DNA of 64,000 nucleotides. Source: an uncultured virus (IMG/VR IMGVR_UViG_3300008116_000020) (Duplodnaviria; Heunggongvirae; Uroviricota; Caudoviricetes). Positions 4,466-30,416 of this stretch are shown piece after piece. Both the position numbers and the translations under genes were made by a program. The notes beneath the pieces are model-generated. The model was not told the DNA's origin. It was given only the letters and a program-made list of their open reading frames with translations, and searched no databases. The stretch lies in the IMG/VR virus record IMGVR_UViG_3300008116_000020, positions 1 to 64,000 of that record, one strand, 5' to 3'. Positions within the stretch are counted from its first letter, which is position 1. Each line of letters starts with the position of its first letter.

Positions 4466-5215
4466 TCATCTTGATACCCATTTATAAGTTTTACCTTTAA
4501 TTATATCAGAAACACAACTTTTTGATATACCATATTTATTACTAAGTTTATCATAAGATAATTTGTTATTATTATAATCAAATATTAAATTTAATACTTC
4601 ATCTTCTCTCAACTTTGAATTTCTTTTCGAATTTTCAATACTATAAATTTCTAGCATTTTAGAATATGGTTCAATATTATCATAATTACCATCTTTATAT
4701 TTCCATAAGAATCCCGTGTGATGTATAACACCCTTCTCGATACCAGTCAATTTAATATTGTTCTGCCTTTCTGCTTCTGACTTACTTGGATACTCCTCTA
4801 TAAAAATACCATTTAAATCATATTTCAATGTTACATAACTCATACTGATTAATTGAGATTTTGGCATTTTCTTACCTTTATTCGATTTGGAGATTTTTTC
4901 TTTAGTTTCATCAGAAATTTTTCTACATTCTTTGGAAAATCCACCATATCCACCATCAGTTAAATTATAATAATCATCACTATCAACCGCATTTTTTTCT
5001 GATATTAAATATCTTTCATATTCTCTAGCGTCATTTTCATTATCAAATACTTTTATAATATTTTTCTCAAAATTCTCCCTACCATATTTCTTTATAGCTC
5101 TAACTAATAGTTTTCCTGATCCTAAATATTTTTTAGACTTCTTCTCATTTTTGGTTACACAAACCCCAATGTATTTTTTACCATTAATCAAATTTTTTGT
5201 TTCATATACATACAT
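4466..5215 (-). CDS. Seg-like GIY-YIG homing endonuclease with NUMOD domains
   Basis: MYVYETKNLINGKKYIG, YLGSG, YNLTDGG and SDETKEKISKSNKGK motifs. Confidence 0.9.
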   Translation of the reverse strand: MYVYETKNLINGKKYIGVCVTKNEKKSKKYLGSGKLLVRAIKKYGRENFEKNIIKVFDNENDAREYERYLISEKNAVDSDDYYNLTDGGYGGFSKECRKISDETKEKISKSNKGKKMPKSQLISMSYVTLKYDLNGIFIEEYPSKSEAERQNNIKLTGIEKGVIHHTGFLWKYKDGNYDNIEPYSKMLEIYSIENSKRNSKLREDEVLNLIFDYNNNKLSYDKLSNKYGISKSCVSDIIKGKTYKWVSR

Positions 5216-9689: not shown

Positions 9690-9916
9690 TTTTTAAAATT
9701 GATTTTTTAATTTATAACTTTTATTTATTTAAACATTTTTCTGATTTGTTTACCAAGATCTTGGTCATTAGTAAAACTTTTACAGACATCAATATCTCTG
9801 TAAAGAGATCTTACTTTACTACCCAATTCCATATCATTGGAATATGAACGTCTTAGTTTTTTAATAACTTCAACATCATCAATTGAGAAAATTTCTACCA
9901 TAGTTTTATTTTTTAG

Positions 9917-9989
9917 TAGCGGAGGATGGATTCGAACCACCGACCTCAAGGTTATGAGCCTTGCGAGCTGACCACTGCTCTACTCCGCG
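9917..9989 (-). tRNA. tRNA-fMet (CAT), no encoded CCA
   Basis: CGCGGAG...CAAGG CTCATAA CCTTG...CTCCGCTA; unpaired 1:72 position typical of initiator tRNA. Confidence 0.9.
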
Positions 9990-9997
9990 ATATTTAG

Positions 9998-10070
9998 TAG
10001 CCCTATGTGGATTCGAACCACAGTCTCTTAGTCGAAAAACTAAGTATCCTATCCGCTAGACGATAGAGCC
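9998..10070 (-). tRNA. atypical tRNA-like gene A (Glu-like body, 8-nt anticodon loop TTTTTCGA)
   Basis: GGCTCTA TC GTCT AGCGGATA GGAT A CTTAG TTTTTCGA CTAAG AGAC TGTGG TTCGAAT CCACA TAGGGCT A. Confidence 0.8.
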
Positions 10071-10087
10071 ATATTTGAGTGTTTTAA

Positions 10088-10164
10088 CCAGGGGGTTACC
10101 TGAACACTCTTAATATCTACCAGGGGGTTACCTGGATTTTTAGTTGTGCCAGGGGGTTACCTGG
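10088..10164 (-). repeat. three direct copies of the hairpin CCAGGGGGTTACCTG(G)
   Basis: copies at 10088, 10120 and 10149; on the minus strand CCAGG-TAACCC-CCTGG. Confidence 0.9.
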
Positions 10165-10171
10165 ACTTTAG

Positions 10172-10259
10172 TAGCCTCATATGGATTCGAACCACAGTCT
10201 CTTAATCGAAAAATCAAGTATCCTAAGTGTTTTACAACACACCGCTAGACGATAAGGCT
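10172..10259 (-). tRNA. atypical tRNA-like gene B (8-nt loop TTTTTCGA, D-loop hairpin insert GTGTT-GTAA-AACAC)
   Basis: acceptor AGCCTTA/TGAGGCT, anticodon stem CTTGA/TTAAG, T arm TGTGG TTCGAAT CCATA. Confidence 0.75.
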
Positions 10260-10284
10260 CATAGGTCGCCATTTTTTATTTTTT

Positions 10285-10316
10285 CAAAGATACGGAAGAT
10301 TTTTCAATCTACCAAA
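10285..10316 (-). promoter_or_regulatory. Bacteroidota-type sigma70 promoter (-33 TTTG, 20-nt spacer, -7 TATCTTTG)
   Basis: minus strand TTTG-GTAGATTGAAAAATCTTCCG-TATCTTTG. Confidence 0.8.
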
Positions 10317-10348
10317 TCTTTTTTAATTTCAAAGAACGTTTTCTTTAG

Positions 10349-10432
10349 TAGCCCCATGTGGATTCGAACCACAGTCTCTCAGTCGAAGAACTGATTATCC
10401 TACCTCTTACGAGTCCGCTAGACGATAGGGCC
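10349..10432 (-). tRNA. atypical tRNA-like gene C (8-nt loop TTCTTCGA, D-loop hairpin insert CTC-GTAA-GAG)
   Basis: acceptor GGCCCTA/TGGGGCT, anticodon stem ATCAG/CTGAG, T arm identical to gene A. Confidence 0.75.
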
Positions 10433-10560: not shown

Positions 10561-10649
10561 AGGTTAAAAAAAATAGAGCCAAATCTAACTGACATCCTTC
10601 ACCGTAAACTAGACGATACTTCGTGTTTTATTTAAACTATCTATTTTAG

Positions 10650-10721
10650 TAGTCCATAGGAGGATCGAACTCCTATTTTCAGGATGAAAACCTGATATCC
10701 TAACCATTAGATGAATGGACC
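10650..10721 (-). tRNA. tRNA-Glu (TTC), canonical 7-nt loop
   Basis: TCAGG TTTTCAT CCTGA anticodon arm; full cloverleaf. Confidence 0.9.
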
Positions 10722-10738: not shown

Positions 10739-10770
10739 CAAAGATAAGGAAGATTTTTCAATCTACCAAA
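10739..10770 (-). promoter_or_regulatory. Bacteroidota-type sigma70 promoter
   Basis: TTTG-N20-TATCTTTG, near-identical to 10285..10316. Confidence 0.8.
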
Positions 10771-10784
10771 TCTTTTTTAATTTC

Positions 10785-10913
10785 TTTTGATTACCCAACC
10801 ACTCACGTCCTTTTACTCTTGTGGTTAAAGGTCTTGCGGACCACCATAACGGGTTTGTCATACTAGGAAGACGCTCAGTACACAAACCTTGCTCCTCTCT
10901 GAGGTAATCAAAA
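10785..10913 (-). ncRNA. candidate structured non-coding RNA, family unidentified
   Basis: GC-rich island closed by the 11-bp inverted repeat TTTTGATTACC/GGTAATCAAAA, with internal helices and its own upstream promoter. Confidence 0.5.
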
Positions 10914-10961
10914 ATGTAATATTTCAAAGAACTTGTATCAGACGTTTCTGATTTTGTTTTA

Positions 10962-10993
10962 CAAAGATAAGTAATCTTTTTTAATCTACCAAA
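10962..10993 (-). promoter_or_regulatory. Bacteroidota-type sigma70 promoter
   Basis: TTTG-N20-TATCTTTG. Confidence 0.8.
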
Positions 10994-12415: not shown

Positions 12416-12958
12416 ATGAAAAAAGAAGAACTAGAAAAATATATCAATGAAGGTATATCATTAAATCAAATATCAAAAGAAACATGTAAATCTTTAACTA
12501 CAATAAGGTACTGGGTAAATAAGTATGATCTAAAATCAAACTTTGTTACTTTTAAAGACCAAGTTAAAACAGAATATGGTGAAACCAGATTTTGTCCAAG
12601 ATGTGGAAAATATGTTGAAACTAAAAACTTCCATCAGAGAAGAGGAAAAGAAAATGGATCATCATATTGCAAACCTTGTACAACTGATCAAACTTTAGAA
12701 AGAATGAGAAAATTAAAAAGTCAAATGGTTGAATATAAAGGTGGATGTTGTGTTAGATGTGGATATAATAAATATATGGGTGCTCTTGAGTTTCACCATT
12801 TAGATCCAAGTGAAAAAGATTTTAACCCATCACATTTAAGAAAATATAAGTTTGATGATAGAGCTAAAATGGAGTTAGATAAATGTGTTTTAGTTTGTTC
12901 AAATTGTCATAGAGAAATACATCACGAACTTAAACAAAAAGAAAAAGAGACACTTTAG
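12416..12958 (+). CDS. HNH homing endonuclease inside the tRNA cluster
   Basis: N-terminal HTH and CxxC pairs; ALEFHHLDP...CVLVCSNCHREIH. Confidence 0.85.
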   Translation: MKKEELEKYINEGISLNQISKETCKSLTTIRYWVNKYDLKSNFVTFKDQVKTEYGETRFCPRCGKYVETKNFHQRRGKENGSSYCKPCTTDQTLERMRKLKSQMVEYKGGCCVRCGYNKYMGALEFHHLDPSEKDFNPSHLRKYKFDDRAKMELDKCVLVCSNCHREIHHELKQKEKETL

Positions 12959-30341: not shown

Positions 30342-30344
30342 AAG

Positions 30345-30416
30345 TGCGAATAATGGGATTCGAACCCATGACTTAGAGTTTTAGAGGCTCCTACTCTACC
30401 ACTGAGTTATATTCGC
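30345..30416 (-). tRNA. amber suppressor tRNA (anticodon CTA); amino-acid identity unclear
   Basis: GCGAATA TA ACTC AGTGGTA GAGT A GGAGC CTCTAAA ACTCT AAGTC ATGGG TTCGAAT CCCAT TATTCGC A. Confidence 0.85.

Follow-up and report, generated by a model that had tools for sequence, protein, structure and literature searches.

Several described systems resemble, each in its own respect, the genes that are the subject of this work: three odd tRNA-Glu-like genes (copies 1 to 3) in the transfer RNA (tRNA) island of an uncultured phage, IMG/VR record IMGVR_UViG_3300008116_000020. The window, that is, the whole stretch analysed here, is the first 64 kb (64,000 nucleotides, nt) of this 78,156-base virus record, which is estimated to be 24% complete. 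We put at roughly 0.4 the probability that the odd genes encode processed, largely non-decoding mimics of tRNA-Glu that have an RNA or protein partner.

One extra base 5′ of the anticodon is the classical design of the suf-type suppressors, and suppressors of the sufD, sufG, SufB2 and SufJ type are laboratory mutants of single genes. Phage tRNA variants are also known against anticodon nucleases, namely the T5 tRNA-Lys against PARIS and the T4 repair against PrrC; these concern tRNA-Lys with 7-nt loops. GOLLD is a cage-forming RNA of known structure. According to the published passages, it occurs near tRNA islands, its linker can contain tRNAs, and a pseudo-tRNA that is not expressed lies inside one mycobacterial GOLLD (bioRxiv 10.1101/2024.12.08.627333, PMC12990946, PMC6582537). 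Yeast mitochondrial tRNA-Thr1 (UAG) has a natural, selected anticodon loop of 8 nt and derives from a different tRNA (PMC3113583, PMC4267643); it is encoded by a single organellar gene without elbow hairpin, decodes triplets and reassigns CUN. The bacterial YrlA (Y RNA-like) RNAs are tRNA mimics (PMC4201824); they imitate the elbow and acceptor of a tRNA without decoding, with a Ro-binding stem in place of the anticodon arm and the gene located beside rsr. Archaeal D-loop introns and the hairpin insertions of the Candidate Phyla Radiation (CPR) are located in the same D-loop region as the inserts reported below.

Compared with these systems, the odd genes share with the anti-nuclease tRNAs that they are extra phage copies with an anticodon stem-loop unlike the host type, but they are Glu-type. 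No context of the YrlA kind was seen at this locus. Our literature search turned up no account of tRNA-Glu variants in phages that have D-loop hairpins or anticodon loops of 8 or 6 nt, and none of GOLLD in giant phages.

Three paralogous cloverleafs with a tRNA-Glu body had been proposed in the original prediction, and all three were located on the minus strand:

9998..10070, minus strand: copy 1, 73 nt, Glu-type, no D-loop hairpin; anticodon arm CUUAG-UUUUUCGA-CUAAG at 10026-10045
10172..10259, minus strand: copy 2, 88 nt, Glu-type; D-loop hairpin GUGUU-GUAA-AACAC at 10227-10240; anticodon arm CUUGA-UUUUUCGA-UUAAG at 10200-10219; A1-U72
10349..10432, minus strand: copy 3, 84 nt, Glu-type; D-loop hairpin CUC-GUAA-GAG at 10404-10413; anticodon arm AUCAG-UUCUUCGA-CUGAG at 10377-10396

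A DNA search of the genome against itself links the copies (copy 3 with 80% identity over 73 nt, copy 2 with 89% over 54 nt). The Glu-type body is composed of UC-GUCU-AGCGG...GGAU and a 4-nt variable loop AGAC (A46, no residue 47), and the acceptor starts with G1-U72 (A1-U72 in copy 2) followed by G2-C71. Kept in all copies are U8, A14, G18G19, the UUCGA T-loop, G15/C48, U11-A24, U13-G22 with A46, and the 4-nt length of the variable loop. The identity set of Escherichia coli glutamyl-tRNA synthetase (GluRS) is given as U34, U35, C36, A37, U11-A24, U13-G22:A46 and a missing residue 47, the last three being the major tRNA-Glu determinants outside the anticodon in the published passages (PMC9976931). 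The D-helix elements of this set and UUC are present in the copies, while position 37 is G and not the A37 of E. coli.

Standard tools handle these genes poorly. Copy 1 scored 48.6 bits against the Rfam tRNA model (gathering score 29), with one base inserted by Infernal in the anticodon loop, and ARAGORN reported it as 'tRNA-??? (tt)', with a two-base anticodon and a 6-nt loop. Copy 2 obtained 16.1 bits (E 4.1), copy 3 gave no Rfam tRNA row at E≤10, and neither was called by ARAGORN; both fail because of the 10-15 extra bases in the D-loop. Since the odd genes are missed or mislabelled by the standard tRNA finders, they have escaped notice as a recurring part of the tRNA islands of giant phages, also in the published 635-kb genome LR745206.

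In all three copies, 8 nt separate the 5-bp anticodon stems; the loops UUUUUCGA, UUUUUCGA and UUCUUCGA read U-U-(U/C)-UUC-G-A. The canonical 7-nt loop with U33 and purine 37 is absent from all three, copy 3 has C directly 5′ of UUC where U33 would sit, and its pair 27-43 is an unpaired A/G. All three carry an extra nucleotide adjoining the anticodon, as suppressors do.

We aligned 20 homologous anticodon arms from 13 records, several of which are close kin, so that 20 sequences are not 20 independent events. Loop positions 4-6 are UUC or CUC in 20/20 and position 7 is A or G, while positions 3-5 would spell UUU, CUU, UCU or AUU across the same arms. The loops had been read before as the Lys anticodons UUU and CUU plus one extra base; this reading is rejected because positions 4-6 are always YUC (Glu) and positions 3-5 are inconsistent. 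By their sequence, then, the loops hold a Glu anticodon to which one base has been added 5′. A decoy role, if the genes have one, would be directed at tRNA-Glu and not at tRNA-Lys.

In all 20 arms the first base of the loop makes a standard pair with the last (C-G 13, U-A 5, U-G 2), whereas the outermost stem pair 27-43 is unpaired in five. All six pairs of the arm covary, and the covariation score was reached by 0/500 shuffles. ARAGORN and the minimum free energy (MFE) folds also close the loop, to 4-6 nt. The proposed 8-nt loop therefore holds as a count of the bases between 5-bp stems, but because its end bases pair in 20/20 the arm is better read as having an extra base pair that closes a hexaloop Y-N-YUC-R, the helix being in effect one step nearer the loop. 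Pairable 32/38 bases are sometimes seen in the canonical 7-nt loops of related phages as well, e.g. CUCUCAG and UUCUCAG. That a Glu anticodon in a closed hexaloop and an elbow hairpin are kept although the stems change is the mark of selection for a function other than ordinary decoding.

The extra base invites a comparison with +1 frameshift suppressors. Programmed +1 decoders were among the roles suggested for these genes; they would read the quadruplets GAA-A/GAA-G, either for phage recoding or for derailing host translation. The loop indeed equals a Glu loop to which a pyrimidine has been added 5′ of the anticodon, with one extra nucleotide beside the cognate anticodon as in the suppressors, and the added base can be U, C or A, variation that would suit a fourth base of the anticodon. 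However, the extra base adjoins the closing pair, and the genome shows no adaptation to quadruplets. Among 89 open reading frames (ORFs; 65.5 kb), we counted 1311 in-frame GAA codons; A came next in a fraction of 0.397 of them and G in 0.290, the background over all codons being 0.385 and 0.282, respectively. GAG-A was likewise near background (0.341 vs 0.329) in G013, a complete 224-kb phage with terminal repeats that mirrors the window in having one hairpin-less copy, two hairpin copies and one canonical tRNA-Glu, all with CUC. Thus no avoidance of in-frame GAA-A or GAA-G was seen in the window phage, nor of GAG-A in G013, and with about 900 in-frame target sites exposed in 65.5 kb, efficient quadruplet reading would be self-destructive. 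The scan for +1 ORF pairs in the phage gave 29 pairs, nearly all with a start codon at the junction, and no convincing programmed pair. Unlike the suppressor mutants, the phage design is natural, multi-copy and conserved, with paired loop ends throughout the alignment. We consider programmed +1 decoding very unlikely, as the genome gives it no support.

The sole long +1 candidate in that scan joins 63947-64936 (329-aa ORF) to 64875-67517 (880-codon frame), with a 59-nt overlap that contains a single GAAR site. As the downstream frame can begin at a start codon of its own, 67 nt past the stop of the upstream ORF, these are probably two genes.

The structure of the odd genes was evaluated with an alignment of the three copies and a fourth paralog (L007:1014-1099) from a near-identical IMG/VR contig, which holds the same three genes, a duplicated tRNA-Met and this paralog (D-loop hairpin ACUC-GAAA-GAGU; anticodon arm UUAAG-UUUUUCGA-CUUAA). 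With the 7/4/5/5-bp stem pattern, 83/84 cells pair. Both sides have changed in four pairs, three of them being anticodon-stem pairs, and the covariation score was matched by 0/500 shuffles; sliding the partners reduced pairing to 25-58%. These data bear out the earlier view that the structure is under selection and not in decay. One truly decayed gene lies in the same array:

10575..10620, minus strand: 5′ remnant of a further Glu-type gene; D arm UC-GUCU...GGAU kept, no T arm, then a T run

Its fold is no better than shuffles (z = 0.45), and it is an example of a decayed copy after loss of selection; the three genes, intact beside it, are therefore maintained.

The odd genes might instead be decaying tRNA-Glu pseudogenes with loops invaded by small mobile hairpin elements. 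The homing endonuclease genes in and near the island and the remnant itself would fit this idea. The compensatory pairing in 83/84 cells is contrary to it, and so are the three or four D-loop hairpins that differ in stem yet occupy the same site and the conservation of the design over many phages, so that we regard it as largely refuted and hardly credible.

An assembly slip can be ruled out as the source of the extra loop base. The 8-nt loops are identical in the independent IMG/VR sister contig, and contigs of the DNA run X3, from another study, span all three loops with no indel within them, which confirms the base in independent DNA where one fewer T had been conceivable. Run X3 differs from the window in four places: copy 2 has an 11-nt indel polymorphism at its 5′ end (10257), copy 3 has G>A in position 43 (10378), and the other two changes lie outside the genes; minus those 11 nt, the acceptor strand of copy 2 would begin GG.

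The two GNRA-capped D-loop hairpins of the original prediction were both recovered (copies 2 and 3). The insert site is constant, after G18G19 in the variable part of the D-loop, while the stems differ between copies; the caps are GUAA in copies 2 and 3 and GAAA in the fourth paralog. The MFE folds show them as plain, bulge-free stems of 3-5 bp with a GUAA or GAAA cap. Across the wider family the inserts measure 10-70 nt and, by inspection, are mostly stems capped by UUCG, CUCG, GAAA, GCAA and similar tetraloops.

Two other origins of the insert were rejected. For a mobile hairpin element, the stems GUGUU/AACAC, CUC/GAG and ACUC/GAGU differ at one site, and the host genes are intact and covarying. 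The bulge-helix-bulge intron motif places a 4-bp helix with a 3-nt bulge on either side at the borders of exon and intron, and an archaeal-type D-loop intron of this kind does not agree with the plain stems without bulges in the folds. A scan of genome contigs caught mostly archaeal and CPR tRNAs with D-loop inserts, many of them by the same pattern as the phage loci. They are A1-U72 tRNA-Gln-type genes or dead copies, and GOLLD was found in none of these loci (L220-L339, mostly archaeal or CPR), whereas the phage genes have plain tetraloop stems and are intact and covarying; we therefore rejected them as the same phenomenon.

Through a covariance model built from the four paralogs, run on whole records of relatives and on loci found by pattern, we examined the wider family. 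The locus pattern combined the Glu-type D arm, a D-loop insert and the T arm, and gave 36 viral loci and at least 120 metagenome stretches; with a loop-specific pattern, the sister contig was the sole match. The same 8-nt design is present in at least about 26 distinct sequences from at least about 17 phage or metagenome records. The 152 distinct matches listed divide as follows:

23 of 152: 8-nt loop ending YUC-R-N, end bases pairable (copy 2 included)
0 of 152: 8-nt loop ending YUC-R-N, end bases not pairable
5 of 152: Y-N-YUC-R hexaloop on a 5-bp stem
6 of 152: 7-nt loop CUUUUCA (the type of record G003)
15 of 152: canonical 7-nt Glu loop with D-loop hairpin
10 of 152: canonical 7-nt Glu loop, no hairpin
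29 of 152: A1-U72 tRNA-Gln-like with intron-type inserts, unrelated
9 of 152: separate 'GCCGAGG' group, unrelated
12 of 152: other tRNAs
43 of 152 (the remainder): Glu-type body with other anticodon arms

Beyond the 23 counted, additional 8-nt-loop copies occur in G013 and LR745206. The loop of copies 1 and 2, UUUUUCGA, was found identical in L188 on the unrelated stem ACCUC/GAGGG, together with the D-loop hairpin CUC-UUCG-GAG. Other loops are CUUUUCGG (G005, G007, L181, L104, L184 and LR745206), CCUUUCAG or CUUUUCAG (L081, L091, L098, L140, L154, L203 and L204), and CUUCUCGG and UCUCUCAG (G013).

The acceptor stem GGCCCUA/UGGGGCU is common to copy 3, L173 and the hairpin-less copy of G013, whereas the canonical tRNA-Glu of each phage has another stem. 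The odd genes therefore have their own lineage and are not fresh local duplicates; judged from the sequences compared here, they appear to be a distinct and conserved phage lineage of tRNA-Glu derivatives. The expectation that homologs keep the loop length was borne out by the approximately 26 or more sequences with 8 nt, but not by L173, the best-scoring outside match listed, which has 7 nt.

In the relatives, the odd genes are associated with GOLLD. We detected this RNA with Rfam RF02032 (Rfam gathering score 150) and with our own nhmmer profile of the GOLLD 3′ domain. Among the loci listed, GOLLD lies within 1.5 kb of odd genes in 16 records (Rfam 278-324 bits, or nhmmer), and it was not used in the pattern search. 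In G005, G007 and LR745206, one hexaloop gene stands at the 5′ side of GOLLD and a second starts 10-11 nt after the GOLLD 3′ domain; LR745206 has a third hexaloop gene 85 nt beyond the second. Arrays of 4-6 genes lie upstream of GOLLD in L068, L070, L081, L083 and L085; these have the same body GGUCUGU...ACAGACU, with identical acceptor stems and a D-loop hairpin, and their anticodon arms carry tetraloops, a CUUCGAA loop (Arg-UCG-like) or 10-32-nt inserts. The same Glu-type genes thus bracket or precede GOLLD as published tRNAs do, but the published passages on GOLLD-flanking tRNAs contain no Glu-derived lineage, D-loop hairpin or remodelled anticodon arm. The repeated position makes the odd genes a concrete and testable candidate partner for GOLLD and, if the reading as mimics working with GOLLD is true, would give the first functional handle on it.

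Next to one of these loci, in G003 (L026:1664-1767), a tRNA with anticodon CUA and an approximately 30-nt anticodon-loop insert stands just after an odd Glu-type gene and GOLLD.

The position beside GOLLD also suggests a different role, in which the odd genes would be tRNA-shaped handles, disarmed to keep them out of translation, for the cutting of neighbouring non-coding RNAs (GOLLD, or the hairpin spacer of the window) at exact ends by RNase P and RNase Z. The 10-11 nt between the GOLLD 3′ domain and the odd gene in G005, G007 and LR745206, with another gene at the 5′ side, would suit such punctuation; so would copies 2 and 1, which bracket three CCAGGUAACCCCCUGG hairpins in the window, and the tRNAs published in and beside GOLLD (bioRxiv 10.1101/2024.12.08.627333, PMC12990946, PMC6582537). 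Yet such handles would need no conserved Glu hexaloop, no Glu-identity D arm and no 3-6 tandem copies. GOLLD is flanked by ordinary tRNAs as well, Met for example, and GOLLD was not found in the 78-kb record of the phage. We consider this role quite unlikely.

Some relatives also carry GluRS-like genes:

L210:1492-2979, L211:1501-2343 and L213:913-1761: GluRS-like genes of G005 and G011 (full-length and about 280 aa)

Full-length GluRS-like genes are present in G001, G004 and G005. The proteins of about 280 aa (G005, G011, G012 and G006) score about 214-218 bits to bacterial GluRS (cut-off 290), below the cut-offs of both the gltX and the GluQRS models, and are without the insertion domain and the whole anticodon-binding part. 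An enzyme without anticodon-binding domain could be a charger of bodies with varying anticodon arms. The short gene occurs in 3/5 records with odd copies (G005, G011 and G012; not G003 or G013) and in 1/5 without (G006), a sample too small for a claim of linkage. A GluRS-family gene was not found in the 78-kb record of the window phage, a fragment estimated at about 24% of the genome.

Considering GOLLD and the short synthetase together, we might speculate, with considerable doubt, that giant phages possess a dedicated class of non-decoding tRNA-Glu mimics that works with the GOLLD nanocage and/or with a minimal GluRS lacking the anticodon-binding domain. The mimics could be cargo, docking adaptors, non-ribosomal glutamyl carriers, or decoys against a host factor aimed at tRNA-Glu.

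For expression we depended on RNA-library contigs. Two metatranscriptome libraries of one study gave contigs with 0 differences over 9930-10078 and 9993-10150 (the latter X16), which take in copy 1 and part of the hairpin spacer. These contigs weakly indicate expression, which had been listed as a check on the original prediction. The RNA contigs X17 were rejected as phage transcripts; they are mostly 90-95% matches running into unlike sequence, that is, tRNAs of other organisms. The parts of the stretch left uncovered by the RNA runs are not evidence of silence.

In the mechanism we propose, the odd genes would be transcribed within the tRNA island and would keep the features for folding into an L-shape and for excision by RNase P and RNase Z. 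Their anticodon arm may have gained a nucleotide on the 5′ side that pairs with position 38, placing YUC and purine 37 in a closed hexaloop, and in most members a hairpin with a stable tetraloop would grow from the variable part of the D-loop, at the elbow. The mimics would still be recognised by a factor that reads the tRNA-Glu body and the anticodon loop, and would be poor substrates for ordinary decoding. This factor could be GluRS, an enzyme that cuts or modifies the anticodon loop, or another RNA, for instance GOLLD. Charging of the products, if it takes place, would suggest that Glu-tRNA is used outside the ribosome during phage infection.

In this mechanism, the processing, the non-decoding behaviour and the nature of the partner are inferred, and several observations weigh against it. 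The conserved YUC and purine 37 are also expected of a working decoder. The best-scoring outside homolog among the matches listed, L173 (87.9 bits), has the 7-nt Glu loop UUUUCGU with G37 and the hairpin GUAUC-GAAA-GAUAC; the 15 distinct D-hairpin forms among the matches listed have canonical 7-nt Glu loops, and three incomplete phage contigs have no Glu-like match other than a form of this kind, so the D-loop hairpin may be compatible with decoding. Copy 1 has no D-loop hairpin at all. Many members of the family are closely related, and sequence counts overstate the independent events. The evidence for expression consists of two short RNA-library contigs of one study, the libraries may contain DNA, and the contigs show no ends. 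GOLLD was searched for with both Rfam and nhmmer in the 78-kb record, about 24% of the estimated genome, and was not found there.

The odd genes might alternatively be working Glu triplet decoders (GAA/GAG) in which the extra base and the elbow hairpin confer resistance to a host factor attacking tRNA-Glu. YUC and purine 37 in 20/20 homologs and the hairpin forms with perfect 7-nt loops would be natural under this explanation, and triplet-reading 8-nt-loop tRNAs do exist in yeast mitochondria (PMC3113583). GAA is heavily used in the window phage, so that several Glu tRNA genes make sense, and in both phages seen the odd copies match the canonical anticodon (UUC in the window, CUC in G013). In G013, GAA is more common than GAG (919 vs 410), yet canonical and odd genes carry CUC; thus the odd genes follow the canonical tRNA-Glu of the phage and not the commonest codon. 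Decoding is not favoured, however, by loop end bases that are Watson-Crick or G-U in 20/20, mostly C-G, and close the loop to 6 nt, nor by the C in place of U33 in copy 3. The related GOLLD-side arrays keep the same body with anticodon arms unable to decode (loops of 4, 10, 12 and 19-32 nt), and no tRNA-Glu-specific host nuclease was identified in this analysis. We regard resistant decoders as rather unlikely; if the genes were either such decoders or decoys, this would imply that hosts attack tRNA-Glu in a way not yet recognised.

Taking the mimics as our preferred reading, what remains of the original prediction is the paralogous Glu family, the selection on structure, the GNRA hairpins and the canonical tRNA-Glu nearby, while the Lys reading is abandoned and the programmed +1 decoding has no support from the genome. 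The canonical gene was found by both ARAGORN and Rfam, in the same array as the odd genes:

10649..10721, minus strand: canonical tRNA-Glu(UUC), 7-nt loop UUUUCAU; ARAGORN; Rfam 60.3 bits
10477..10560, minus strand: tRNA-Tyr, between the Glu-type remnant and copy 3; ARAGORN and Rfam
9916..9989, minus strand: tRNA-Met, 8 nt downstream of copy 1; ARAGORN and Rfam
10285..10320, minus strand: promoter-like element on the upstream side of copy 2; TTTG and TAtcTTTG separated by a spacer of 20 nt that contains an inverted repeat
10088..10164, minus strand: three copies of the hairpin CCAGGUAACCCCCUGG, the spacer between copy 2 and copy 1

On the minus strand, from 10721 to 9916, the order is tRNA-Glu(UUC), the Glu-type remnant, tRNA-Tyr, copy 3, the promoter-like repeat, copy 2, the three hairpins, copy 1 and tRNA-Met.

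The promoter-like element at copy 2 fits what we take to be the Bacteroidota -33/-7 consensus. An exact 23-nt repeat TTTGGTAGATTGAAAAATCTTCC, followed by TAnnTTTG, occurs at 10294-10316 and 10748-10770 (minus strand), upstream of copy 2 and of the canonical tRNA-Glu, respectively. A variant of this repeat lies near 10950-10990, and G005 has a similar promoter-like element ahead of its first odd gene (L027, about 415-445).

The hairpin CCAGGUAACCCCCUGG gave three matches against 0.01 expected, none of them elsewhere in the window, and 0/100 shuffles reached three; the fold of the spacer has z = -3.5. A similar hairpin, CCCAAGUAACCCCUUGG, is located beside the tRNA array of LR745206 (L001, about 4117). 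We also considered 10785-10945 as a candidate small RNA and rejected it, its fold being no better than shuffles (z = -1.0).

The phage sequence has a G+C content of 27.8%, and DNA matching the window was seen again in lake and freshwater metagenomes. By the neighbouring AAA-ATPase gene, the nearest relatives are phage contigs of 280-600 kb, and matches to the tRNA island were also obtained in LR745206 and LR7565xx, genomes of uncultured phages of 635-735 kb. Synteny of the island is lacking: the loci around the AAA-ATPase gene in 15 relatives contained other tRNAs and no odd copies.

Two ORFs of the homing endonuclease kind accompany the island, an HNH endonuclease ORF inside it (12416-12958, plus strand) and a GIY-YIG/SegE-like ORF near it (4466-5215, minus strand). 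Endonucleases of the HNH and GIY-YIG kinds could be drivers of tRNA gene duplication and shuffling.

A further tRNA of the window, at 30344-30416 on the minus strand, carries the anticodon CTA (amber suppressor; labelled Pyl by ARAGORN) and scores 69.8 bits against the Rfam tRNA model. Among the ORFs of at least 120 aa, TAG is the rarest stop codon (7/89), and it may be read as sense in some phage genes.

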